NCBI GenBank assembly: GCA_020847715.1
Contig: JADLBM010000007.1
Location: forward strand, 8,624-72,623
Source: Candidatus Yanofskybacteria bacterium
GTDB lineage: Bacteria > Patescibacteriota > Minisyncoccia > 2-02-FULL-40-12 > GWA2-44-9
Length of the DNA: 64,000 nucleotides
Reading direction: 5' to 3'
Shown here: positions 621 to 12,818 of the stretch, piece after piece
Position numbering within the stretch: the first letter of the stretch is position 1
Layout: each line of letters begins with the position of its first letter
Position numbers and translations under genes: made by a program
The notes under the pieces: model-generated
The model's input: the letters and a program-made list of their open reading frames with translations, nothing else
Told to the model about the DNA's origin: nothing
The model's database searches: none

Positions 621-839
621 ATGCCAAAGAAATACCTCATGGTGCAAGAAGTGGCGCACCTCCTTGGAGTCACTCCCCTTACGATTCGCAACTGGGATGC
701 GAAGGGAAAGCTCACCGCGTACCGCCATCCGCTCAACAACTACCGGATGTATAAAGTCGAAGATGTCGAAGCTATCATCCGACGAATGGAAGTCTCCCGC
801 GAAAAACCGAAGGCGCGGAAAATAGATATTGTAGGCTAA
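621..839 (+). CDS. Small helix-turn-helix DNA-binding protein, excisionase/MerR-type HTH
   Basis: 72-aa protein; MVQEVAHLLGVTPLTIRNWDAKGKL matches the excisionase-family/MerR HTH pattern. Confidence 0.65.
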   Translation: MPKKYLMVQEVAHLLGVTPLTIRNWDAKGKLTAYRHPLNNYRMYKVEDVEAIIRRMEVSREKPKARKIDIVG

Positions 840-877
840 GAAAGAAAAAGCCCCTCACGTGCGTGAGGGGCGATACG

Positions 878-3745
878 TCAGACCGGCTTGGGGAGGAACT
901 TCCGCCAGTCGAACTGACGCGGATTTGCGAACCAGTCCCTGATTTGGTCGTACATCAGGGAGCGCACGAGGACGGGGCCGTCCTCGGGTCCACCGGTCGG
1001 GAGGCCGATGAACAGCACGCCCGTGTTGTTGGGCGGGAACCCACGCTCACCGTACAGGTCGGTGTGCGTGTTCGCGGGACCCATAGCGTAGATGGCGTAC
1101 GGGGTGATGATCTTGTTCTTGAAGTGCTTGTCACCGTACGTCTTCAGGGTGACGCGCCCCGTCGCATGGCCGAAGGAGTCGCCACGGGCGCGGTCGTTGT
1201 TGACCACGGCCGACAGCGGGTCCGACCAGCTCGAGAGACGCGCAGGAGACGCGAGGAACGTCAGTCCCCACTCATACCCACCAGGAGCGCAGACCGTGCC
1301 AAGCGCGAAGTACTCGTTGCTGTACAGCGGCGCGAGCACATAGCGATCGAGGAACGCCTGCTGGTCCTTCCAGTGGGAAAGCCCCGCCAGCCGAGCGCGG
1401 AGGTACTGTGCGTAGAAGACACCTTCTGTGAGCGTGTCTTCGACGGACGCCGCGAAGTGATTCCCGCAACCGATGTTGAGGATGCCGACGTCGCGCCCAT
1501 CGTACGGAATACCGCGAATCTCACTGAGACCGCGGATTGCCAGCTTGGAGCGCTGAGAGCGACGGAGCACCGAATCGAAGAAGTCCAGGTTGGGGTCGAT
1601 CAGCCGAGTGAACACTTCCAGCATTTGCGGCTGAACCCAGTCCAGACCTCGAATGAGGAACTGGCCGAGGTCGAACCGCGCGGCATCCACGGTGAGCTGC
1701 ATGACCGTGGCCGAGTCGCCCCGCTTCGCAGCGTTCCCGATTTCGTCGTGGCGCTTGCGCCACCACTTCTCGATCTGATCATACGACATCTCGCCCGGAT
1801 CGGGCTGCTTGTGTGTGTCGTAGTGATTCCCCTGCGTCGGGTCATCGTTGACCGTCAGGAGGTGAATCGGGAAATCGTTGCTGTCGAGGATGCCACCGCG
1901 GCGCATCATCATGACGACCGCCTCGGATACGCCGAGGTTGCGATGCGTGGTCGCGTCGAAGATGTGCTCACGAGAGCGGCTGCCCATGTGGATGTCCGTC
2001 ATCTCGACGGTCCAGATGTAGCGCGTCTCCGGATACGGGTAGTACCCGGGAATGACCGCCTTCGGCCGCTTTGCCTTCGGGAGGTGCTTCAGGTGGACGC
2101 TGTTGTCCAACTTCGCGATGGGGAACGAGTCTCCCGTCACGATGCCGTTGACGCGCTGGAGGACCAGTACGCCAGGGCAGAACTGCTCGGACTTCAGCAC
2201 CTTCGAGATGGGGTGCACCGCCTTCGTGGAGCCACGAAGCTCCCCGCGGAGGAACGCCTCGTCCACACAGATGGGAGCCACGTGCACTTCGGATGAGTCG
2301 CGCTGACCCATTGTGTAGTGATCGCGACCGACCATCCGGTGGTTCAGAGCGTACGGGTGGCAGATGACCGCAGTGTGCGGCACAGCTCCGCGGTACGCCT
2401 TCGCACCGAACTCGTCTACGAAGGACGAAAGGAGACCATCGGTGACCTTGATGTTACCCGGGATGTGAACCTCGATGGGATCGTAGTCGCCCACCTTGAC
2501 GTGGCTAGTCCCCTGCCCAATGACGCGGCAGTTGGGAATGACCTCTTCCAGCTTCTTCGCGAGCAGGGCGCGGAGTCGCAGACGGCGCCGCTCCAAATCC
2601 TGGTCACTGACGTTCGTGATGATGGTCATCGCAAGCTCTTCAGTGAGCTCGCGCAGGTCCTGTTCGTACTTCGCGATGTCGATGGCGGCCTGACGCCGAT
2701 CCGAAGCGCTCCTGCTGTTGAGCATGCTGTACGCCCGTGCCAACTCACGCTTCGTGAAGCTGATGTGGGCTTCGAGCTGCTTCCGCTCCAAGAGCGTGAT
2801 GTAGCGCACCTCGTAGTACGCCGCCGTGTTGATGAGCTCCTCCTCGACGTAGCCGAGGGGATAGAGCACGGGACCGCTGAACTCGGGAGACCCGTCAGGA
2901 CGGTGTGTGATCTTGTGCCACGCGTCCAGGAACCCCAGGAACTTCGCCTCGAGAGGCATGAAGATGACCTCGTCGAGCGGCTTACTCCTGAGGATGCGTC
3001 GCGCCTTCGCCTGATACGAGGCGGGCAGATGCTCGACCTTCACATGAAGGCCTGAGACCTGGGCGCGGTATGTCTTGATGGGACCAGCGGCCTTCTTGAG
3101 GTCCATGGACAGGCCGTTGGTAATCACGACGCACGCATCGCCTCGCTTCTCGGCATCCGACAACGCCCGCCGGACCGGATTGTCCTTGATCAGGCGGTTG
3201 TGCTTGATACCGATGAGGCCACCGTTGACGAACGCGACCGTCCAGTCCGCCCCTGCGGGCACGACGAACGGGTTCGCGAAGCTGGATTCAGGAAACTCGA
3301 AGAGCTCCGCGTCCGCGGCGAGATCCTCCGTGGACAGGCGCCCCATGCCGGCGATGAACTTCGCCGATGCGTGGGCATTCGTGACACCCGTCAGGAACTT
3401 CGCCTTCTTGGCGAACATGTCCTCGGGGATGTACGCGTAGTACTTCTTCCGGAACTCGTCCAACGGAATGTTGGTCCGAATCGCACGCTTGAGCGCATCG
3501 AGCGCCTGCGTGGTCCAGATGAGCTTCGGCAGTCGACCGATGAGACCCTGCTTCGAAAGGCGCAGGCCTCCGGTCAACTTCTCGACGAATTCGGTGCGGA
3601 GTGTCTGTAGGATCGACTCCAAGCCGCCCTTGCGCAGCAGCGCACCCGACTGGATGAGCTCGCGGCAACGGGACTCGAGGCCTTGGATCCTCCAGACGTC
3701 CTTCGCCGCCGAACCGTTTCGGTGTGACGTCTCGGCCTTTGCCAT
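878..3745 (-). CDS. Large hypothetical protein (955 aa) with calcineurin-like metallophosphoesterase motifs in the C-terminal half; N-terminal about 550 aa unassigned
   Basis: Single uninterrupted 955-aa ORF with diverse composition and GC-rich third positions; motifs TDIHMG...GNHYDTH and a second GCGNHF resemble DxH...GNH(D/E) of metallophosphatases; the overlapping + strand ORFs (863-2296, 2318-3055) are R/D/V/L-rich, typical antisense artefacts. Confidence 0.6.
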   Translation of the reverse strand: MAKAETSHRNGSAAKDVWRIQGLESRCRELIQSGALLRKGGLESILQTLRTEFVEKLTGGLRLSKQGLIGRLPKLIWTTQALDALKRAIRTNIPLDEFRKKYYAYIPEDMFAKKAKFLTGVTNAHASAKFIAGMGRLSTEDLAADAELFEFPESSFANPFVVPAGADWTVAFVNGGLIGIKHNRLIKDNPVRRALSDAEKRGDACVVITNGLSMDLKKAAGPIKTYRAQVSGLHVKVEHLPASYQAKARRILRSKPLDEVIFMPLEAKFLGFLDAWHKITHRPDGSPEFSGPVLYPLGYVEEELINTAAYYEVRYITLLERKQLEAHISFTKRELARAYSMLNSRSASDRRQAAIDIAKYEQDLRELTEELAMTIITNVSDQDLERRRLRLRALLAKKLEEVIPNCRVIGQGTSHVKVGDYDPIEVHIPGNIKVTDGLLSSFVDEFGAKAYRGAVPHTAVICHPYALNHRMVGRDHYTMGQRDSSEVHVAPICVDEAFLRGELRGSTKAVHPISKVLKSEQFCPGVLVLQRVNGIVTGDSFPIAKLDNSVHLKHLPKAKRPKAVIPGYYPYPETRYIWTVEMTDIHMGSRSREHIFDATTHRNLGVSEAVVMMMRRGGILDSNDFPIHLLTVNDDPTQGNHYDTHKQPDPGEMSYDQIEKWWRKRHDEIGNAAKRGDSATVMQLTVDAARFDLGQFLIRGLDWVQPQMLEVFTRLIDPNLDFFDSVLRRSQRSKLAIRGLSEIRGIPYDGRDVGILNIGCGNHFAASVEDTLTEGVFYAQYLRARLAGLSHWKDQQAFLDRYVLAPLYSNEYFALGTVCAPGGYEWGLTFLASPARLSSWSDPLSAVVNNDRARGDSFGHATGRVTLKTYGDKHFKNKIITPYAIYAMGPANTHTDLYGERGFPPNNTGVLFIGLPTGGPEDGPVLVRSLMYDQIRDWFANPRQFDWRKFLPKPV

Positions 3746-3860
3746 TGTGCTTCTCCTTCATTGTCAGAGAACAACGCCGAAACTATACCAATCTATTTCA
3801 CCCCGACAACTTGACGAAACATAAGAAAATGCGGGTGGCTTTCGCCACCCGCACCAAGCG

Positions 3861-5093
3861 CTATGCGGTCACCGCGACGGCCTTCACCGTCTTCGGCTTT
3901 TCGTCCATCACCGCACCCGACAACTGCTCCGTCTTCATCGCCAAGTTCTGGCCAATGAGACTGCCTCCGGCGTTGCCGACGATGTAGGGCGCTGCCTTCT
4001 CCGCCGTAATCGTCCCCTGTGCAAGGGAGTGCATGCACAGGTACCACACACCATTGGAGAACACCGAGGTCCACGCGAGGTACTGCGGACTGTTCCGCTG
4101 GCGGGCGCGGCTCACCATCGTGAAGCTCACTGCCTGCCACGCGGAAACCGCCAACAGAAGGAGTGCCGGCTTCCAACCAGCAAACCCGAAGACCAGCACA
4201 TGGACCACCAGAATGAACGCAAGCGCCTGCAGCTGCGCCACGGGCCATTGCACCTTGGCGCCGGCGGTCACATGTGCATCGAAGGTCGCCTTCAGCTTCT
4301 TCCCGAGATCCTGCCCGACATTCGCACCGATGAGCGAGCCGATGATGCTCCCCGTCGTAACGGGCAGGAACAACGCCCAATCGAATCGGTTGCTAATCAT
4401 GATGAACAGCTTCAGGAAGGCAACGCCGATTTGGAAGACGACTGCACCCGCGTGGAACCAGTAGTGATCGGTGCTTCGCGCGACGCGGAGAAGTGAGAAT
4501 GCGAAGCTTTCCACGACGGTCAGAAGAAGGAGTGCGGCAAGCAGGCCCCTGCCGAACGACGGCGCGCTCAGCATCATCTGCGCCCCAAGCGCGGCGCTTA
4601 GGAGCGCGACCGTCGGCCACAGTTTCATGAGCTGCGGCCGACCCTTCGCGCCCTCCGCAGACAGCCCCAGCGCGGACTCGATTCTGATCGAGAGCGTGTT
4701 CGCATGCAGCGTACCGAGAATGGTCGCAAACACGTATGGCGCCAAGAGCGCCGGCGGCAACTCGTTTCGCACCAGCAACCGTAGCGACCAGAAGAATGTG
4801 AAGCTCGCTGCCAGCGCCGCGAGCACGTGGTAGGCATTGCTATTGCGGTTCGCGGAACGCGACTGAAGGCCATACGCCGTGTTCTGGAGGTACGCCAGCC
4901 CCATCACAGTGATGGCTGTTAGCGGGAGCCACAGTGCGGGATGGAGCTGCACGAACTGAACTAGATGACCGTAGGTAGTCCGAAGCTCCTCGAAATGAGC
5001 CTTCGAGAACACGCCGAGCTGCGCCGCGACAACGCCGCCAATCAGCCACAGCGGATTGATGTTCCACAACCTCGCACCGAGACGAGTGAGCAT
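3861..5093 (-). CDS. Polytopic integral membrane protein (10-12 predicted TM segments), unknown function
   Basis: Long hydrophobic ORF; start placed at Met66 of the listed ORF (MLTRLGARLW...) because the upstream extension translates a noncoding tandem DNA repeat. Confidence 0.55.
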   Translation of the reverse strand: MLTRLGARLWNINPLWLIGGVVAAQLGVFSKAHFEELRTTYGHLVQFVQLHPALWLPLTAITVMGLAYLQNTAYGLQSRSANRNSNAYHVLAALAASFTFFWSLRLLVRNELPPALLAPYVFATILGTLHANTLSIRIESALGLSAEGAKGRPQLMKLWPTVALLSAALGAQMMLSAPSFGRGLLAALLLLTVVESFAFSLLRVARSTDHYWFHAGAVVFQIGVAFLKLFIMISNRFDWALFLPVTTGSIIGSLIGANVGQDLGKKLKATFDAHVTAGAKVQWPVAQLQALAFILVVHVLVFGFAGWKPALLLLAVSAWQAVSFTMVSRARQRNSPQYLAWTSVFSNGVWYLCMHSLAQGTITAEKAAPYIVGNAGGSLIGQNLAMKTEQLSGAVMDEKPKTVKAVAVTA

Positions 5094-5159
5094 GGAAGCT
5101 TCCTTTCTTGTAAATGACGCCGGAGGCACCCTAGCACATATGAGGCTCCATTCAAGCAC

Positions 5160-5263
5160 ATAGGTAATCCTACGGCCTGCTGGCCTCAGGATTGTTGCGC
5201 GACGGGGTCGATCGCAATAGGTAATCCTACGGCCTGCTGGCCTCAGGATTGTTGCGCGACGGG
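5160..5263. repeat. Two tandem copies of a 47-bp element (ATAGGTAATCCTACGGCCTGCTGGCCTCAGGATTGTTGCGCGACGGG) separated by 10 bp; each copy holds an inverted repeat AATCCT-N16-AGGATT
   Basis: Direct identical repeat read at 5160-5206 and 5217-5263, lying between an upstream terminator and the membrane-protein gene start. Confidence 0.85.
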
Positions 5264-5273
5264 TACGCGCAAC

Positions 5274-5302
5274 AAAAAGACCGCCCACGGATGTGGACGG
5301 TC
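5274..5302 (-). terminator. Rho-independent terminator for the minus-strand gene 5318-5611
   Basis: Minus strand reads GACCGTCCACATCCGTGGGCGGTC followed by TTTTT; separately, a TTGTTGCGC/GCGCAACAA stem-loop (not a T-tract terminator) lies downstream on the minus strand. Confidence 0.6.
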
Positions 5303-5317
5303 ATCGATTCAACCACC

Positions 5318-5611
5318 TCAGAGGACGCGCCAGCCCACGAGAAGTTTCGCCAGCTCGTGTACTTCCTGAGGCGAGAGACGCTGGCACTCGCAGAGACGAA
5401 CGGTCAGCTTGTCGTCGGGACACAACGAGACGATGTCACCGAACACCTCGTTTTTGAGCAAGAAAGGACTCGGCCTGCCAATCCATCGTCGTATGAAGTT
5501 GGCGAGCTCGTTCAGGTCTGCAACCCTCTTGATATCGTCCGCGACCAGACAGAGGTACTCGACCTGCTGGGGATGCGCCGCAATCGTCTTACACACCGAG
5601 ATCTTGGTCAT
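5318..5611 (-). CDS. Hypothetical small protein (97 aa, MTKISVCKTIAAHPQQVEYLCLVADD...)
   Basis: ORF with a GGAGGG Shine-Dalgarno 6 nt upstream of the internal ATG at 5611; the longer 124-aa version lacks an RBS. Confidence 0.5.
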   Translation of the reverse strand: MTKISVCKTIAAHPQQVEYLCLVADDIKRVADLNELANFIRRWIGRPSPFLLKNEVFGDIVSLCPDDKLTVRLCECQRLSPQEVHELAKLLVGWRVL

Positions 5612-5678
5612 TTCACCCTCCGCACAACGAACCGGCACCACGGTAGCAAGATTCGGGGCCCTGCGCAATCTTCCAGAA

Positions 5679-5709
5679 ATTGACTCATCCAAAGAACTAT
5701 GGTATATAA
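5679..5709 (+). promoter_or_regulatory. Sigma70-type promoter for the LemA-TPM operon (TTGACT-17-TATATAAT)
   Basis: TTGACT at 5679-5684, 17-nt spacer, TATATAAT at 5702-5709; AAGGAG RBS precedes the ATG at 5760. Confidence 0.6.
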
Positions 5710-5759
5710 TCCCCGCAGATCCTTTCCAAATCCAACCCCGTTTCTAAGGAGTGTCCGCA

Positions 5760-6356
5760 ATGAAGAAGTTTGCCGTCGGAATCGTGGCAGTGCTGGTGCT
5801 TGCCGTCCTGTACGGCATCAGCGTCAACAACACCATCATCGCGCACCAGCAGGATGCCGAGCAGAAGCTCGCCAATGTCGCCTCCGCGCTCCAGCGCCGA
5901 GCCGACCTGCTCCCGAACCTGGCGAGCATCGTGGCCCGCTACGCGACCCACGAACAGAGCACCTTCATCGAGACGGCCCGCGCTCGCGCCTCGGCCGCCG
6001 CATCCATCAAGCTGGACGCCGAGACGCTCAGCGACCCCGAGAAGCTGAGGAAGTTTCAGGCGGCACAGGGTGAGGTGTCTTCCTTCCTGTCGCGCCTGAT
6101 GGCGGTTCAGGAGCAGTACCCCAATCTGAAGGCCGATCGGCTGTTCATTGACCTGCAGGCGCAGGTGGAGGGCACCGAGAACCGCATCAAGGTCGAGCGG
6201 GACAACTACAACACGGCGGTCCGCAACTACAACAACATCGTCCTGATGTTCCCGTCGAGTCTGGTGGCGTCGTTCCGCAACTTCCAGAAGCTGCCCTACT
6301 TCCAGGCGGAAGAGGCTGCAACGAAGACGCCGGATCTGGGAGACCTCCTGAAGTGA
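5760..6356 (+). CDS. lemA: LemA family protein
   Basis: N-terminal TM then the conserved LemA region (QQDAEQKLANVASALQRRADLLPNL...YNNIVLMFPSSLVASFRNF). Confidence 0.85.
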   Translation: MKKFAVGIVAVLVLAVLYGISVNNTIIAHQQDAEQKLANVASALQRRADLLPNLASIVARYATHEQSTFIETARARASAAASIKLDAETLSDPEKLRKFQAAQGEVSSFLSRLMAVQEQYPNLKADRLFIDLQAQVEGTENRIKVERDNYNTAVRNYNNIVLMFPSSLVASFRNFQKLPYFQAEEAATKTPDLGDLLK

Positions 6357-7054
6357 GGCGCCTCCTCGCAGTCGTCGCATTCGCCGCGGCACTCACTGCC
6401 GCGGCGGAGGACCAGCTCCCCCGGCCTGCCGGGTACGTGACGGACACCGCCGGCCTCCTCTCGACCGCCGCAGTGACCCGCATCGACGAGCAACTCCGAG
6501 CGTTCGACGCACAGACATCAACGCAGGTGGTCGTCGTCACCGTCCTGAGCCTCAACGGTGAAGCGCCGGAGGCGTACGCAAATCGCCTGTTCCGCCAGTG
6601 GGGTGTCGGCCAGAAAGGCACCAACAACGGAGTGCTCCTGCTCATCACCAAAACCGACCGGAAGATCCGCATCGAGGTCGGGCGCGGGCTGGAAGGAGCA
6701 CTGCCTGACGCGACCGCCAAGGAAATCATCGACACAATCATTGCCCCACACCTCGCCAAGCGAGAGTTCGATGTCGGTGTGGGCGCTGGCGTGGACGCCA
6801 TCCTCGCTGCCGTGAAGGGTGAGTACACCCGCCCACCGTCGACCGGATGGCCAACATGGCTCATCGTGCTCATCATCGTCGTCGTGGTCCTCCTCATCCT
6901 CATCGTGCTCGCCGCAGGGAACAGCAGCGGAGGAGGCGGATACTACGCTTCCGGCGGAAGCGACTGGGGCGGGAGCAGTGGCGGCGGAGGCGGAGGTGGA
7001 TGGTCCGGCGGCGGAGGAGACTCCGGCGGCGGAGGAGCGAGCGGCGGATACTAA
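6353..7054 (+). CDS. TPM-domain (YgcG-like) protein with C-terminal TM and Gly-rich tail
   Basis: Signal peptide, then GYVTDTAGLLS...VVVVTV...GVLLLI...RIEVGRGLEG typical of TPM/DUF477; start overlaps the lemA stop; LemA-TPM pairing is a common operon. Confidence 0.8.
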   Translation: MRRLLAVVAFAAALTAAAEDQLPRPAGYVTDTAGLLSTAAVTRIDEQLRAFDAQTSTQVVVVTVLSLNGEAPEAYANRLFRQWGVGQKGTNNGVLLLITKTDRKIRIEVGRGLEGALPDATAKEIIDTIIAPHLAKREFDVGVGAGVDAILAAVKGEYTRPPSTGWPTWLIVLIIVVVVLLILIVLAAGNSSGGGGYYASGGSDWGGSSGGGGGGGWSGGGGDSGGGGASGGY

Positions 7055-7152
7055 TCTATCGCTCGACCCCATGGCGGGTTCTTCGTGAACCCGCCTTTTT
7101 TGTGCTCACAAATTGCCGATACCGAGATTTTATGCTAGAATGTAGTACTTTT

Positions 7153-7223
7153 GGGGGATTCGTTCAGTGGCAGGACGGCGGTCTCCAAAACCGCTAACGT
7201 GGGTTCGATTCCTACATCCCCCG
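7153..7223 (+). tRNA. tRNA-Trp (anticodon CCA)
   Basis: Cloverleaf read by hand: acceptor GGGGGAT/ATCCCCC, anticodon stem GCGGT/ACCGC with loop CTCCAAA, T-loop TTCGATT; preceded by promoter TTGCCG-17-TAGAAT (7111-7139). Confidence 0.9.
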
Positions 7224-7227
7224 CATC

Positions 7228-7262
7228 AAGAAAACAAGGCGCCATGTGGCGCCTTGTTTTCT
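7228..7262 (+). terminator. Rho-independent terminator after tRNA-Trp
   Basis: Perfect inverted repeat AAAACAAGGCGCC...GGCGCCTTGTTTT followed by CTTG. Confidence 0.7.
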
Positions 7263-7431
7263 TGCTTGTGAAGGAGTATGTAGGAATCGAACCGCCGGAG
7301 CGATGTTGCGTCAGTAGGCGCAACCGCGAGGCGGGGTCCCGAGTGCACGGCGAAGCGACGGCAAGCCGTGACACGAGGGCGATTCCCTTACAATCTTCGG
7401 CGAACCGTCGAGAGCGAAATTCCTGCACCCC

Positions 7432-8148
7432 ATGAAGGCAGCGCAAAAGAAATCAAAAAATGATGGCCATGTACTTGCGCTTAATAAGAACATCAAGGGA
7501 GTTCGAGCGCTCCTCGATATTGCCTCACGACCGAAAATTAGAGCAGTCGAAAAAAGAATTCTCCTGAGAAGCGCAATCGTCTTATTTGTGGCTTGCTGGG
7601 AAGCATTTGTTGAGGATTTAGCACGGACGGCTTTCAAATTCATGCAAAAAGAAGCTGGAGACTGTTCAAAAGTACCAGATTCAATCAAGAGAAGACTTTC
7701 GGAGCAATTACTCAAAATAAAAGACCCGATTTACCCCTGGTCCCTCGCGGAGGACGGTTGGAAAAATGTTCTTCAAAAGCACGGCGATACGGCAATCCAG
7801 GAATGGGTTGACGCGGTAAATACACCGAGTAGCCAGGCAGTCTCCCAACTTTTTGAAAAACTTATTGGACTCAGGAATATGCCAAACTTTTGGAGTTGGC
7901 GTGGCATGTCTGCGAATCAGGCGAAAGCAAGGCTCGCTGAATACATAAGGATTCGTGGAGAAATTGCGCACCGCGTCTCGGCAAATACCAGAGTAGCGAA
8001 AACCGTAATTTCTAGAACTTTTGTAATTGACCATGTTAACTTCATATTCCGCTTGGCCACACGCTCATGTAATGGTGTTCGGAAGCACCTAGTAAAATCG
8101 TTTGGTAAGGAGCCGTGGCCAAGCTATTCATACAGGGCAACCAAATGA
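7432..8148 (+). CDS. HEPN-motif protein (R-x4-H: IRIRGEIAHR), possible abortive-infection/toxin-like RNase; compositionally foreign
   Basis: 238-aa ORF that is clearly AT-rich (about 40-45% GC by eye versus over 60% in flanks); C-terminal RGEIAHR fits the HEPN Rx4-6H motif. Confidence 0.5.
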   Translation: MKAAQKKSKNDGHVLALNKNIKGVRALLDIASRPKIRAVEKRILLRSAIVLFVACWEAFVEDLARTAFKFMQKEAGDCSKVPDSIKRRLSEQLLKIKDPIYPWSLAEDGWKNVLQKHGDTAIQEWVDAVNTPSSQAVSQLFEKLIGLRNMPNFWSWRGMSANQAKARLAEYIRIRGEIAHRVSANTRVAKTVISRTFVIDHVNFIFRLATRSCNGVRKHLVKSFGKEPWPSYSYRATK

Positions 8149-8255
8149 TTTCATGCCCCACATGCCCCAGTCTGGTATCCGGTCCGCCACCCGGAAACCC
8201 TTATACTGCCCTGTAAAGGCGGGCGCTTAACCTCCCTCCCCCACAAAAACAAAGA

Positions 8256-8279
8256 CGGGGCCACCATGGTGGACCCGCC
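8256..8279 (-). terminator. Terminator hairpin (GGGGCCACCATGGTGGACCC) followed on the minus strand by a T-rich tract
   Basis: Near-perfect 20-nt palindrome; minus strand continues CTTTGTTTTTGTG. Confidence 0.5.
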
Positions 8280-8310
8280 GGCATCATCCATTGAGGAGTG
8301 ATGCCTCCGC

Positions 8311-8490
8311 ATACGATTACTTCTTCTTTTCGTTCTCGCTTCGGGCAATGAGGCCCCGCGTCTCGGCCTCGACACGCTGGAGGCGATCCTCCTCGCTTTC
8401 AAAGGTGAACATCGCGGAAATCGGGTTTCTTCCCGTTTCCCCGAAGTCACGCGCCCTCTCGTAACTGGTTACCTGCTCTTGAGCCGTCCT
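8311..8490 (-). CDS. Possible small protein (59 aa, MARTAQEQVTSYERARDFGETGRNPISAMFTFESEEDRLQRVEAETRGLIARSENEKKK)
   Basis: ORF below the 60-aa cut-off of the track; GGGGAAG Shine-Dalgarno 5 nt upstream of the ATG; terminator hairpin just downstream. The listed overlapping 99-aa ORF 8151-8450 is in another frame, is low-complexity and runs through the terminator. Confidence 0.35.
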
Positions 8491-8638
8491 CGCCATAACT
8501 TCCCCTACACGAAGTGCGCCACTTCTTCTCGTCGATGCTCCTGAACTGCTCTCTCTGCTGTGAATAGACCTACTGTACTCACTATTTTAAAATCTGTCAA
8601 TAATCCATGAGAAGGGGCTCTGTGGTATAGTTTTCGCC

Positions 8639-9208
8639 ATGAAGATTGGCCGTAAAATCTACGTCACCACCGCCGCCCAGTGGCGCGCGTGGCTCACTAA
8701 GAACCACGCGACCGCGCGTGAGGTGTGGCTCGTGTACTACAAGGTCGGAAGCGGGAAACCGCGCATCTCCTACAACGATGCCGTCGAGCAGGCGCTCTGC
8801 TTCGGCTGGATCGACAGCACCGCGAAATCCATCGACGCCCTCCGCTTCGCCCAGCGCTTCTCGCCACGCCAGGACCCCACGAACTGGTCGCAACACAACA
8901 TCGAGCGCATGCACCGCATGATTGCGTCCAAGCAGATGACCCCAGCGGGGTTGGCCGCATTCAAGCACCACACGCCACTCTCAAAAACGAAACGGCTCGT
9001 CCTCGCTCCCGATGTGAAAGCTGCGCTCACCCGAGACCCTGCGGTCTGGCGCGCATTCATGGCATTCCCCGCGTCCTACCGGCGCATCCGTATCGCCGCC
9101 ATCGAACACTATCGGGCACGCGGTGCTGCCGCGTTTACCAAGCGCCTCGCTCACTTCGTCAAAAGAACAAAGGCCGGAAAGCGCATCGGTTTCGGCCACG
9201 GAGAATAA
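8639..9208 (+). CDS. YdeI/OmpD-associated family protein (bacteriocin-protection, PF13376-like)
   Basis: WRAWLTKNHATAREVWLVYYK...ISYNDAVEQALCFGWIDS...FSPRQDPTNWSQHN matches the YdeI family pattern. Confidence 0.7.
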   Translation: MKIGRKIYVTTAAQWRAWLTKNHATAREVWLVYYKVGSGKPRISYNDAVEQALCFGWIDSTAKSIDALRFAQRFSPRQDPTNWSQHNIERMHRMIASKQMTPAGLAAFKHHTPLSKTKRLVLAPDVKAALTRDPAVWRAFMAFPASYRRIRIAAIEHYRARGAAAFTKRLAHFVKRTKAGKRIGFGHGE

Positions 9209-9209
9209 G

Positions 9210-9238
9210 AAACGACCCTGTGAGGGGCCGTTTCTGTA
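9210..9238. terminator. Bidirectional terminator between the YdeI-family gene and rpmG
   Basis: GAAACGACCCTGTGAGGGGCCGTTTC hairpin; T-rich on the minus-strand side. Confidence 0.55.
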
Positions 9239-9240
9239 TG

Positions 9241-9405
9241 CTAGCCAGTGAGCTTCGTTTCCTTGTGCGGCGTGCGCTTCTTGCACTTCGAGCAGAACTT
9301 CATATATTCGAGCTTCCGCTCCACCTTCTTTTTGTTCTTGGTGGTGTAGTAGTTCGCGCTCTTGCACTTCTGGCACTTCATGCGAAGGAGATTGTCTTGA
9401 GACAT
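9241..9405 (-). CDS. rpmG: 50S ribosomal protein L33
   Basis: Not in the ORF track (54 aa). Translation MSQDNLLRMKCQKCKSANYYTTKNKKKVERKLEYMKFCSKCKKRTPHKETKLTG has the L33 C-x2-C...C-x2-C zinc ribbon and conserved YTTTKNK / HKETK. Confidence 0.85.
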   Translation of the reverse strand: MSQDNLLRMKCQKCKSANYYTTKNKKKVERKLEYMKFCSKCKKRTPHKETKLTG

Positions 9406-9523
9406 AGAGGTAGATTAGCCCGCGTACTGTAGCACAAACCGTTCAATTTGTGAAGTCCTTCGTGCCTATGCACTCAGGACACTTTGCCAGCCACCCCCCT
9501 CAACCACGAGGGAGTGGCAACGT

Positions 9524-9596
9524 GAGCCGTTGGTCGGAATCGAACCGACGACCTACTCCTTACCATGGAGTTGCTCTACCATCTGAGCTACAACGG
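9524..9596 (-). tRNA. tRNA-Thr (anticodon GGT)
   Basis: Manual cloverleaf: GCCGTTG acceptor, anticodon loop ATGGTAA, T-loop TTCGATT, 73 nt. Confidence 0.9.
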
Positions 9597-9621
9597 CGCT
9601 GCGTACCAAATCAAGAACCGA

Positions 9622-9705
9622 GTGGGGGCGGTAGGATTCGAACCTACGTAGGCCAAAGGCCGACAGATTTACAGTCTGTTGTGATTGACCACTCCACCAC
9701 ACCCC
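9622..9705 (-). tRNA. tRNA-Tyr (anticodon GTA), class II with long variable arm
   Basis: Manual cloverleaf: GGGGGTG acceptor with a G-U pair, anticodon loop CTGTAAA, variable arm CGGCCTTTGGCC, T-loop TTCGAAT, 84 nt. Confidence 0.9.
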
Positions 9706-9751
9706 CATTTTCAACGCCCAATCTGCTCTCTACTCTGCCGAAACTGCCGGT

Positions 9752-9823
9752 GAGCCGGGGGTCGGGATTGAACCGACGACCTACTGTTTACAAAACAGTT
9801 GCTCTACCACTGAGCTACCCCGG
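9752..9823 (-). tRNA. tRNA-Thr (anticodon TGT)
   Basis: Manual cloverleaf: GCCGGGG acceptor, anticodon loop TTTGTAA, T-loop TTCAATC, 72 nt; promoter TTGATT-16-TATAAT upstream on the minus strand (about 9835-9865). Confidence 0.9.
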
Positions 9824-9876
9824 CCGGCGGATAGCCAGACTATTATACCTCAAAACACCCAGAAATCAAACGCCAC

Positions 9877-10524
9877 CTACTCTCCCTGCGCAACCGCGGC
9901 GGCGGCATCTTTGTCAGCTTGCTCCCGACGGCGACGAGCTCGCTCAAGTCGCTTGGCAAGCTGTTCATCGTCAGGAGTCAACTTGGCTGCCGCCTCCAAC
10001 GCCTCAACGGCATCGGGGTAGTTCTGCAATCGGAGGTACACCCGCGCGAGGTCGCTGTAGAGTTGGGCATCCTTTGGATTCTGAGCGATTGCCACGATGA
10101 GCCGCTGCTCCTCCTGTCGAAGCTGTTCGGGATCGTCCATATCAATCTCATCGGTGTCGGTCTCTTCCTTTGCCTTCTCCAATTCCTGCGCAATCTCAAT
10201 GCGCTCCTGCTGCTTGGCCGTCTCTTGATGCACGCGCCGTACGCTGCGGATAACCTTGTCGGACGCACGATCGAGCGCCGACATCAGCAGGCGCCCACGC
10301 CGGAGGAGCTTCTCGAACTCGACGAGCACCGTGTGCACGTACTGACGCCACGGAATCGTGCTGACCCGCTCCACAACCTCCGGTGCGAAGTCGTGGAAGA
10401 TGGTCGTACCGACCTCGTGCGCTTCGGGCGTTAGCTTGCGCAGGTACGGCATTTTCCGCCATACAATGACGGCCGCCCCGATGAAGGCGACGAAGGCAAG
10501 TGACAGCGGGATGATGAGAAACAC
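9877..10524 (-). CDS. Membrane-anchored hypothetical protein with acidic coiled-coil and TPR-like C-terminus
   Basis: N-terminal TM (MFLIIPLSLAFVAFIGAAVIV), charged helical region; starts 3 nt after the tsf stop, so probably co-transcribed. Confidence 0.55.
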   Translation of the reverse strand: MFLIIPLSLAFVAFIGAAVIVWRKMPYLRKLTPEAHEVGTTIFHDFAPEVVERVSTIPWRQYVHTVLVEFEKLLRRGRLLMSALDRASDKVIRSVRRVHQETAKQQERIEIAQELEKAKEETDTDEIDMDDPEQLRQEEQRLIVAIAQNPKDAQLYSDLARVYLRLQNYPDAVEALEAAAKLTPDDEQLAKRLERARRRREQADKDAAAAVAQGE

Positions 10525-11840: not shown

Positions 11841-12818
11841 CTAATCCCGATCCTGAGACGGTTTTGTAGCGCATTCCAGCGGGTAGAGCTGGAATCGCTC
11901 GATATCGACGCTCCCACCGGACTGCGAGCTCACCCACCCGAGCGCAACACCGTAGATTCTGCGCTCCTTCACGGGAACCGTGCTCGTCGGGACACTCACC
12001 CGTACCCACGATTGGCCATCGGCCCGCATGTACATGTTCCCCGCGGGAGTCACATACCAATCGATGTCGACCATGCGGTCAGGCCACTGGAGCGGCTGGC
12101 CCAGCGGGAACACCTGTGTGTTCCCTACGTTGAGATTATCATGGTGGTACGCCGCCCCTCCAAAGACCGGATACGGCGGCGGAGTGACACCGATAGGATT
12201 CTGCCGTGCGGTCGCGCCGACTGTGAGATCCCGCGTCCATGTTCCATCGGCAGGCCATTGCGACGAATTGTACCCTCCAACCAGCATGACTGGCGCATTC
12301 GCGGAACACCCCGAACATGTGAAATACGGCTCAACCTTGAACAGATTTGCGCGCATACGCCCCGCGAATGCGGTTATTGGCTGAGCGAACCGCTTCATAA
12401 GCACCCGCTCGTAGGTGTGCTCCCCTGCAGGACCACCCGTTACCCGAAGCGCCCATGACCGCGAGAATGAGAACCAGTTGCGAGACGACGAGAGCGGAAC
12501 GAGGGAAAGATATTCGCCGTTGCGGATATCAGGCAACACCCCGCCCGCGGTCAAATCGGTGCCGTTCCGCCATCGTGCGCTCAGGAGCATCGGACACGAG
12601 AACGGCGCTCGGCAGACCTCTTCAGTCGAACAGAACATGCCGGAAGGACACGCCGCATCACTGGAGCACTGAATATCCACGAGAGCAGTGCTCGCGCTCC
12701 CCTGCGAGAAGCCAATGTCGTCATGCCTCCAGAGCACCGCGCCAAATACAACCGACACCAGCAGGAGGACACCTCCTGACCGGAGCGACCACAGGGCCAT
12801 CCAGCGCATGCGCTTCAT
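11841..12818 (-). CDS. Secreted hypothetical protein (signal peptide, Cys-rich N-terminal region)
   Basis: Start placed at [29 protein letters not shown] (signal/TM); no recognised domain. Confidence 0.5.

Follow-up and report, generated by a model that had tools for sequence, protein, structure and literature searches.

Dimeric, metal-independent ribonuclease (RNase) toxins occur in the HEPN superfamily in general (PMC3710099), and one of its families, HEPN_RiboL-PSP (PF18735; Anantharaman et al. 2013, PMC3710099), is made up mostly of single-domain bacterial proteins of ~220–240 amino acids (aa) with a sporadic distribution. We analysed a 64,000-nucleotide stretch of DNA (hereafter the window) from a metagenome-assembled genome (MAG) annotated as Candidatus Yanofskybacteria, an ultra-small groundwater bacterium of the candidate phyla radiation (CPR/Patescibacteria), in which a gene for a 238-aa member of this family (IT405_00565 at NCBI, on a 94-kb contig) lies downstream of tRNA-Trp. 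It shares with the described family a full-length profile match, the R-x4-H motif and an all-helical fold, as well as size, domain content and sporadic bacterial distribution. The name-giving fusion to endoRNase L-PSP and the ParB operon are absent, both here and in 22 homologous loci, and are not needed for Pfam membership; our member is further set apart by sitting in a CPR genome.

The RiboL-PSP family is distantly related to AbiD/AbiF (PMC3710099). The lactococcal and clostridial AbiD, AbiD1 and AbiF proteins (Abi_2, PF07751) are likewise stand-alone HEPN proteins without a protein antitoxin and are likewise encoded in variable or mobile DNA, and for these genes control at the level of expression or RNA has been documented: the abiD1 mRNA is scarce and inefficiently translated until a phage protein activates it (PMC2661086), and AbiF-Cd is toxic and neutralised by the adjacent non-coding RNA (ncRNA) RCd22 (PMC12373285). 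The HEPN protein described here differs in having no match to the Abi_2 profile even at E ≤ 1, its gene is not phage- or plasmid-borne, and no abiF RNA motif was found in an Rfam scan of positions 6500–10500, which at E ≤ 1 returned only tRNAs and chance hits. At ~240 aa it is also shorter than the AbiD/AbiF proteins, which are roughly 300–350 aa long. It also differs from the HEPN-MNT systems (HepT-MntA, type II/VII, e.g. SO_3166/SO_3165): the MNT gene is absent here and near all homologues, the protein is ~100 aa longer than minimal HEPN toxins, and sequence identity is 6–8%.

The family is known but uncharacterised, and the HEPN gene adds a further member to it, located at a typical kind of hotspot. 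With moderate confidence, we propose that it is a horizontally acquired single-gene cargo of ~0.8 kb in a variable tRNA-Trp pocket, encoding a stand-alone RiboL-PSP HEPN protein which is a putative ribonuclease and would act as an abortive-infection-type toxin.

The HEPN gene and its relatives

The protein matched PF18735 with an E value of 3.6e−17 (63.3 bits against a gathering cut-off of 28.4) over profile positions 4–182 of 191, a family which had been named in a preliminary description of this DNA. It is single-domain; a second, weak match was to the related HEPN_MAE_28990, and PF18735 and PF18737 were the only families reported at E ≤ 1. Judged by its sequence, the 238-aa protein belongs to the HEPN superfamily and within it to the RiboL-PSP family. 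The motif IRIRGEIAHR, in which the preliminary description had recognised the R-x4-6-H motif of HEPN RNases at the C-terminus, is present, with R175 encoded at 7954–7956 and H180 at 7969–7971. When we aligned the protein with its homologues, R175, G176, E177, I178 and H180 were invariant (6 of 6 sequences), so that the R175-x4-H180 spacing is common to all of them, as were W56, E57, E61 and D62, which form a W56-E57...E61-D62 block within the N-terminal helix.

A word-indexed search returned five homologues, all carrying PF18735, of which the best was 45% identical, while an exhaustive profile search returned 1,498 clusters at E ≤ 1e−3 and 336 at E ≤ 1e−30, nearly all of them single-domain proteins of 220–240 aa. 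Seven longer family members were scanned for additional domains: two have a C-terminal helix-turn-helix (HTH) of sigma-70 region 4 (Sigma70_r4) and the others have no second Pfam domain. This C-terminal fusion, seen in few members (P0100, P0110), may mean that the proteins of some lineages bind DNA or regulate their own genes. An AlphaFold model based on the six-sequence alignment is all-helical, as expected of an all-alpha HEPN bundle, with a predicted local distance difference test (pLDDT) score of 80.6. Foldseek gave nothing significant against the PDB, and when the family profile was run against PDB sequences no related solved structure came up.

We used the 46 non-overlapping open reading frames (ORFs) of at least 150 aa in the window as a reference for base composition (GC 0.592 ± 0.023; GC at third codon positions, GC3, 0.673 ± 0.068). 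Against this background the HEPN ORF (7432–8148, + strand) has a GC content of 0.451 (z = −6.2) and a GC3 of 0.437 (z = −3.5), and it has the lowest GC and GC3 and the greatest codon-usage distance of all ORFs in the window. A sliding 300-nt profile gave 0.44–0.49 over 7400–8100, compared with 0.60–0.67 on the left side and 0.60–0.64 on the right, and in bins of 700 nt the window minimum fell at 7001–8400. The windowed GC and codon-usage calculation thus bears out the earlier impression, formed by eye, that this AT-rich gene is the clearest compositional break in the window. The AT-rich parts are confined to the HEPN ORF and a promoter spacer at 8497–8634 (GC 0.44); composition is host-like at 7226–7431 (GC 0.59), at 8149–8316 (GC 0.60) and in a convergent 59-aa ORF which lies between the HEPN gene and the spacer.

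To place the gene within its family we surveyed the 22 homologous loci, which come from species-representative genomes of at least 7 phyla, including Lentisphaerae, Betaproteobacteria, Acidobacteriota, Omnitrophica, Planctomycetota, Actinomycetota and others; none is from the CPR, which was not otherwise sampled. The GC content of the homologue was below that of its own locus in 21 of the 22 loci. All-against-all clustering of the neighbouring ORFs in these loci revealed no conserved neighbour gene, and no conserved flanking nucleotide sequence was found upstream of 21 homologues. Scans of 137 neighbours against Pfam and PADLOC turned up a mixed set of housekeeping genes, along with small numbers of IS21, Mrr, HicB, methylase and SNF2 genes, and each family occurs in at most 3 of the 137; neither ParB nor L-PSP is among the 25 most frequent families. 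The abiF motif was not found at the Rfam gathering threshold in 13 homologous loci. There is also no MNT or other antitoxin gene near the HEPN gene itself (within 7226–8634), in agreement with what had been noted from the sequence at the outset, and across the 22 loci the HEPN gene is a solo gene without a conserved protein or RNA partner.

Three of the four tRNA genes in the ±6-kb flanks of the homologues lie 64–209 nt from the HEPN gene (P ~ 3e−4 under uniform placement): L014 5603–5890 (Ser), L013 5841–5980 (Ile-UAU) and L017 1582–2558 (Leu). The other neighbours of these tRNA-adjacent homologues are Ogt, a CCA-adding enzyme, IspF and one DDE transposase. As most of these flanking tRNAs lie close to the HEPN homologue, the idea of a tRNA hotspot extends to the family. 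In a further locus, L015, an int-alpA RNA (RF02996, 58 bits), a motif that accompanies integrases and AlpA, was found at 1358–1424, ~4.5 kb upstream of the HEPN homologue, which suggests a mobile-element context there.

Three alleles downstream of tRNA-Trp

We compared the site with two contigs from close relatives: L023, a sister Yanofskybacteria contig, and L112, an independent contig from another data set. The features of the site are as follows.

7113–7141, + strand: promoter-like site (TTGCCG, 17-nt spacer, TG-TAGAAT) upstream of tRNA-Trp, kept in L023
7153–7224, + strand: tRNA-Trp, anticodon CCA (ARAGORN; Rfam RF00005, 60.1 bits)
7226–8634: segment of 1,409 bp absent from L023 (blastn, junction sequence and tRNA calls in L023)
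7227–7264, + strand: hairpin H, perfect over 18 bp, with an A-tract before and a T-tract after it (−29.7 kcal/mol, z = −8.75)
7278–7404, + strand: module E, with a three-way-junction fold (−65.4 kcal/mol, z = −5.35; covariance-model score 87.8 bits)
~7409–8210: swappable cargo segment (in alignments, L112 homology ends at ~7408 and returns at ~8210–8240)
7432–8148, + strand: HEPN gene, RiboL-PSP family, 238 aa
8131–8215: imperfect inverted repeat across the HEPN stop codon, with 73% complementarity between its 22-nt arms, at the distal cargo edge
8256–8277, − strand: terminator of the 59-aa ORF, a GC-rich palindrome followed by TCTTTGTTTTTGT (T-run), 100% conserved in L112
8317–8496, − strand: 59-aa orphan ORF with host-like codon usage (GC3 0.73)
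8565–8613, both strands: AT-rich divergent promoter region, with minus-strand sites at 8600–8572 and 8613–8584 (59-aa ORF) and a plus-strand site at 8565–8593 (OmdA/YdeI gene)

In L023 the gene order is kept (LemA, TPM, tRNA-Trp, OmdA/YdeI, L33, tRNA-Thr/Tyr/Thr and onward) and the orthologue of the TPM-domain gene is 92% identical. By blastn, window 5626–7225 corresponds to L023 9268–10866 (92.5%) and window 8635–9602 to L023 10863–11882 (80%). At the L023 junction the OmdA/YdeI gene begins, with its ATG, straight after the 3' end of tRNA-Trp (...CCCCCGCA), so that 7226–8634 is missing there; the only similarity of L023 to this segment is a short inverted match in its tRNA cluster, which corresponds to the core of the module described below. 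In L023 (10860–10870) the OmdA/YdeI start codon lies 2 nt past the end of tRNA-Trp, leaving no space for a promoter or Shine-Dalgarno (SD) sequence, so that OmdA/YdeI there would need to be co-transcribed with tRNA-Trp; 3' processing of the tRNA would then yield a nearly leaderless OmdA/YdeI mRNA.

L112 is 98.5% identical to window 6407–7386 and 92.7% identical to 8240–8707, and between its conserved stretches it holds 439 unrelated bases. On the opposite strand these encode a 90-aa Cys-rich protein with a match to Lar_restr_allev (E = 8.6e−6; 26.3 bits, slightly below the cut-off of 28.6), which by this family match is a restriction-alleviation-like zinc-ribbon protein. The Lar-like gene (L112 421–907, reversed relative to the window) has its own terminator and is co-oriented with the 59-aa ORF. 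There are therefore three alleles among close relatives at this site: empty, Lar-like and HEPN. Judged from its low GC, the 45% identity of its best homologue, the scattered phyla of the family and the presence, absence or replacement of the segment among relatives, the HEPN gene was acquired horizontally as an insert downstream of tRNA-Trp, and the synteny comparison thereby upholds the insertion at this tRNA that had been suspected.

The further suggestion that tRNA-Trp acted as an integration hotspot held in part: a variable pocket does exist at the tRNA end, but we found neither an integrase nor an att-type repeat bounding the cargo. Within 7226–8634 there are only the HEPN gene and the 59-aa ORF, neither of which has an integrase domain. 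No significant remnant of the tRNA-Trp 3' end was detected at the distal side of the cargo (8149–8316 and 8497–8640), where 74–296 of 300 shuffles scored equally well or better, and the sole remnant, at 7372–7393, bounds the 170-nt module rather than the cargo. The HEPN segment thus lacks these two marks of classic tRNA integration. The empty site in L023 is a feature shared with tRNA-integrated islands, from which the locus differs in that the HEPN cargo lies outside the repeat and has left no att-type scar. The simplest possibility is that cargoes are exchanged by homologous recombination via the shared flanks, and the unequal divergence of these flanks (98.5% vs 92.7%) would fit a mosaic history. 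The inverted repeat at the distal cargo edge may be a weak terminator or a boundary mark. A reading of it as an integron attC site, for which a single RYYYAAC match speaks, was set aside.

The convergent 59-aa ORF had been described as having its own SD and terminator, and we found both: an SD-like AGGGGA stretch and the palindrome with its T-run at 8256–8277, in addition to a promoter-like site at 8600–8572 (10 of 12 matches). It has no match in Pfam. Its sole homologue, P0275, is 93% identical and lies on L112 beside the Lar-like allele, with 7 synonymous and 4 non-synonymous codon differences between the two; the adjoining 3' intergenic stretch is identical at 77 of 77 positions. Using tblastn, we found nothing similar beside the 22 other HEPN homologues, nor in 435 kb of contigs bearing the module. 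Because its codons are host-like, and because it is kept in the allele without HEPN and absent beside the other homologues, the 59-aa ORF is part of the shared frame of the pocket rather than HEPN cargo, though it lies within the islet outlined in the preliminary description (7263–8640).

Beyond the pocket, the TPM-domain protein has a Gly-rich, low-complexity C-terminal tail (GGGGYY.../GGSGGGG; 6900–7054) which is coded by short imperfect direct repeats and is probably flexible or membrane-proximal. The block upstream of LemA/TPM (window ~621–5286) is 88% identical to L023 3966–8622, where it is annotated as a 72-aa HTH_17/MerR (excisionase-like) protein followed by 955-aa and 410-aa proteins without a Pfam domain. 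The GC content of the window falls to 0.54–0.58 around 4900–5900.

The tRNA-trailing module

The preliminary description had treated 7263–8640 as a single islet, with the HEPN gene immediately after tRNA-Trp. The tRNA is indeed present upstream on the same strand (7153–7224), but the HEPN gene starts 207 nt past it, with the hairpin and a structured module occupying the gap, and these first ~170 nt are a separate, tRNA-trailing unit which is independent of HEPN. The order within the unit is terminator hairpin, inverted T-arm copy, two-hairpin core and direct copy of the tRNA 3' end, over ~155–171 nt in all. Its first part, the hairpin at 7227–7264, is predicted from its sequence to be a bidirectional intrinsic terminator closing the tRNA-Trp unit. 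The closing stem of the three-way junction is formed by an inverted copy of the tRNA-Trp T-arm (7278–7293, exact at 16 of 16 positions) and a degenerate same-sense copy of the tRNA 3' end (7372–7393); arm 1 occupies 7294–7332 and arm 2 ~7337–7378. In the core, CGGAGCGAUG-hairpin-CCGCGAG is joined by a variable arm whose loop is of the GACG type. Since the module carries both inverted and direct copies of the end of its own tRNA, each unit recreates a tRNA-like end.

The 3' end of tRNA-Trp, the hairpin and the inverted T-arm copy together form a long imperfect palindrome (7202–7293) centred on the hairpin loop. Its pairing is perfect over the 16 nt of the T-arm and the 18 bp of the hairpin, with an internal loop that contains the acceptor strand; as RNA, this palindrome would compete with tRNA folding and with the closing stem of the module. 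Several other identities for this region were considered and rejected. As an att remnant of the tRNA-Thr/Tyr genes (cluster at 9524–9824) the inverted copy would have 3 mismatches, compared with its exact match to tRNA-Trp; a second, minus-strand tRNA gene at 7262–7345 is found by neither ARAGORN nor Rfam; and group I tRNA introns lie in the anticodon loop (PMC13011429).

A second copy of the module is present in L023, in inverted orientation and at another tRNA. Window 7280–7386 is homologous to an inverted stretch of L023 between tRNA-Tyr and tRNA-Thr (copy at 11884–12111), where the spacer measures 218 nt compared with 24 nt in the window, and the L023 core is bracketed by a perfect 57-nt direct repeat made up of the hairpin and the last 17 nt of tRNA-Tyr. 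The module is thus found at tRNA-Trp in the window and not in L023, and at tRNA-Tyr in L023 and not in the window. A 23-base pattern from the core had 86 exact matches in metagenomes, many of them from 0.1-µm groundwater filtrates (L026–L111). In 62 of the 86 copies a tRNA on the same strand ends 27–88 nt upstream, and at least 18 tRNA specificities are represented. About half of the copies carry a distal, exact direct repeat of 17–21 nt of their own tRNA 3' end, starting in the T-loop, together with a proximal inverted copy of 10–16 nt of tRNA sequence, compared with a median longest match of 5 nt in controls with mismatched tRNAs; the remaining half have shorter, degenerate copies built on the acceptor end. 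In L092 (4290–4760) two exact 156-nt units stand between tRNA-Leu and the terminator that belongs to this tRNA gene, and each recreates the tRNA end over 18 nt. Exact tandem modules were also found in L069, L066, L044 and L108, with periods of 156–171 nt, which suggests duplicative insertion at tRNA-like ends, or slippage.

The window and L023 copies fold into an identical three-way junction. Among 79 distinct copies, 99% of the cells of arm 1 are paired and 100 cells show double changes, compared with 26.5 in shuffles (0 of 500 as high), and this signal was lost when the partner was slid. The positions left free by the search pattern covary as CG 50/GC 20/AU 7, CG 51/UA 24 and GC 40/CG 20/AU 14. 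RNAalifold on a MAFFT alignment recovered arm 1 only, and the claim of covariation is limited to this arm; the two sub-classes of copies do not share a register in arm 2 or in the closing stem, which were therefore judged by folding copies singly, upon which 56 of the 79 formed the closed junction. The excess of G-U pairs over A-C mismatches in arm 1 (12 vs 4) mildly favours the tRNA strand as the folded strand.

No match to the module was found in Rfam 15, either at E ≤ 1 in the window or, besides tRNAs, at E ≤ 0.1 over 8 other copies, and our literature search found no paper describing it. Over the 64-kb window the covariance model detected a single copy, and ~230 kb of non-CPR loci yielded none; the pattern was absent from viral contigs. 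Genes distal to the module are mostly housekeeping genes. None of the 86 module contigs encodes a RiboL-PSP HEPN protein, a Lar-like protein or a homologue of the 59-aa ORF, from which we conclude that the module occurs independently of HEPN, and we rejected a specific link between the two (0 of 86 contigs). The layout at the homologous locus L014 is similar, with tRNA-Ser, a hairpin, an inverted T-arm copy, hairpins, a sense copy and then the HEPN ATG. This leader has no detectable homology to the module, however, and we treat it as analogous only.

As at tyrosine-integrase tRNA sites of the T-loop sublocation, such as attP/attB of mycobacteriophage Ms6 (PMC1762012), the direct repeat of the module runs from the T-loop to the tRNA 3' end. 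Also att-like are the repeat length (17–21 nt, up to 57 nt in L023), the presence or absence between sisters and the tandem units. In contrast to att sites, the repeat-bounded unit of ~155–171 nt encodes nothing, an integrase adjoins it in only 3 of 104 cases, and an inverted T-arm copy and a covarying three-way junction are added. The module also bears some resemblance to folded single-strand recombination sites such as integron attC and the attP(+) of CTX phage. Here the points of likeness are that the inverted and direct target-like copies, ~90 nt apart, can fold into a target duplex, and that pairing is conserved while sequence is variable, with some strand asymmetry (G-U 12 vs A-C 4). The points of difference are that no integron integrase or XerCD/dif context accompanies the module, and that its arm 1 is strongly conserved in sequence too. 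Candidate identities for the module are a miniature mobile element, an RNA in the tRNA trailer and a folded site for single-strand recombination. We tentatively suggest, as a possibility short of a probable one, that the unit at 7226–7404 (125-nt core, ~170 nt in all) represents an undescribed class of element specific to CPR/Patescibacteria, a module of three-way-junction RNA or of folded single-stranded DNA placed at the 3' ends of tRNA genes of almost all specificities. It would be either a miniature mobile element targeting tRNA ends, with the target serving as template for its own ends, or a cis-acting tRNA-trailer RNA.

Proposed control and function of the HEPN gene

In the mechanism that we infer for the HEPN gene, the protein would dimerise, as is general for HEPN domains, and R175 and H180 would together make up a composite RNase site that needs no metal. 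It would thus be a single-gene toxin of the abortive-infection type, without a protein or RNA antitoxin. The pocket would be transcriptionally insulated, on the left by the terminator hairpin of tRNA-Trp and the module and on the right by the terminator of the 59-aa gene. A consensus scan, the signals of which may not be those of the host, found no promoter-like site on the + strand between 7141 and 8565; the only such site upstream of the HEPN gene on that strand is the one at 7113–7141, and no SD of the gene's own was seen. Given the lack of an own promoter and SD, with a strong terminator and the module upstream, our preferred idea is that the gene would be expressed at a very low level, only by read-through of the −29.7 kcal/mol terminator. 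As a second step of control, the extra helices (~100 extra residues) may keep the protein auto-inhibited until an infection signal is received, a model which follows the solo HEPN genes of AbiD/AbiF type. The translation-initiation region of the HEPN gene is unstructured (z = 0.0), so that a structured start of the AbiD1 type is unsupported.

It should be noted that several observations weigh against a defence toxin. The preliminary description's label of a candidate defence or toxin gene stands as far as membership of the HEPN family is concerned, and toxicity and a defence function are putative. Neither the HEPN protein nor the 59-aa ORF matched any family of PADLOC-DB v2 at E ≤ 1, and neither had a match in NCBIfam. 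Our literature search found no experimental study of any PF18735 member. Defence and mobile-element genes are a minority among the neighbours of the homologues, so that guilt by association does not support a defence role, and tblastn of the family found no match in 50,697 phage records and, among plasmids, only 5 megaplasmid matches at ~30–35% identity. The proposed control of expression rests on consensus scans for promoters and terminators in a host whose signals are uncharacterised. Lastly, the exact HEPN protein is known from a single MAG, so that it could be a recent passenger without function.

This last explanation, in which a neutral or non-functional gene was recently transferred, is unexpressed and is being lost, survives best among the alternatives, and we regard it as unlikely though worth serious attention. 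It would account for a gene unique to one MAG with no promoter or SD of its own, in a pocket with fast turnover among relatives, and CPR genomes are streamlined, so that the empty allele may be the norm. What it does not lead one to expect is the state of the ORF, which is intact and of full family length, without frameshifts or stops, with all invariant residues kept and a profile match that spans the whole domain.

We think it improbable that the protein is instead a non-toxic RNA-processing or nucleotide-binding HEPN protein with a housekeeping role, for example in tRNA or rRNA maturation. Non-catalytic binding HEPN domains do exist (PMC3710099), the neighbourhood contains a tRNA, ribosomal protein L33, EF-Ts and S2, and some homologues lie beside tRNAs and a CCA-adding enzyme. 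Such a role sits poorly with a gene which is missing from two closely related genomes and whose family is sporadic across phyla and of foreign composition nearly everywhere, and the catalytic R-x4-H motif is invariant.

We give marginally less credence still to an RNA antitoxin, type III-like as in AbiF-Cd/RCd22, formed by the module or leader at 7278–7431. In its favour, the HEPN gene is directly preceded on its own strand by a highly structured RNA-like element, the family has relatives that make use of an ncRNA next to the gene (PMC12373285), and L014 repeats the arrangement of tRNA, structured leader and HEPN gene. Against this, the module occurs in 86 other contigs without a nearby HEPN gene and in L112 by the Lar-like gene, the upstream regions of 21 homologues share neither a conserved sequence nor the Rfam abiF motif, the L014 leader lacks detectable homology, and tandem repeats in the style of type III systems were not found.

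A two-gene toxin-antitoxin pair, with the 59-aa ORF (8317–8496) as the antitoxin, has been largely refuted and is very improbable. This small, acidic ORF next to the HEPN gene does come with a promoter-like site and a terminator to itself, and its codon changes are those of a genuine coding sequence. Yet it is kept at 93% identity in L112 without the HEPN gene, and its GC3 is 0.73 compared with 0.44 for HEPN. Moreover, nothing similar is found beside the 22 homologues or in the 435 kb of module contigs, no neighbour is conserved across the HEPN family, and the convergent orientation is atypical of type II pairs. That the insertion is a chimera of metagenome assembly is hardly credible: the DNA does come from a MAG, and only one assembly contains the HEPN segment, but the independent assembly L112 reproduces both pocket flanks with the module and the 59-aa gene, two precise joins 0.8 kb apart in unique sequence would be required, and the ORF is intact.

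Returning to the horizontally acquired, stand-alone putative HEPN toxin, its spread without a partner means that its self-control has to be either intrinsic or exerted through expression, and the three-allele site offers a natural experiment for a family described by computation only. The HEPN gene alone would be of modest interest; it is the three-allele site and the undescribed module which raise the value of the locus. If the module is a mobile element, its pseudo-tRNA ends would seed pockets which capture small cargo such as the HEPN toxin or the Lar-like gene. If confirmed, the module would represent a new class of structured RNA or DNA associated with the 3' ends of tRNAs in a major radiation that is still uncultured, and would bear on how tRNA genes turn into hotspots of insertion and how tRNA transcripts are processed where the RNA-processing machinery is minimal. 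The locus indicates that the streamlined genomes of the CPR keep small pockets where conflict genes are exchanged.

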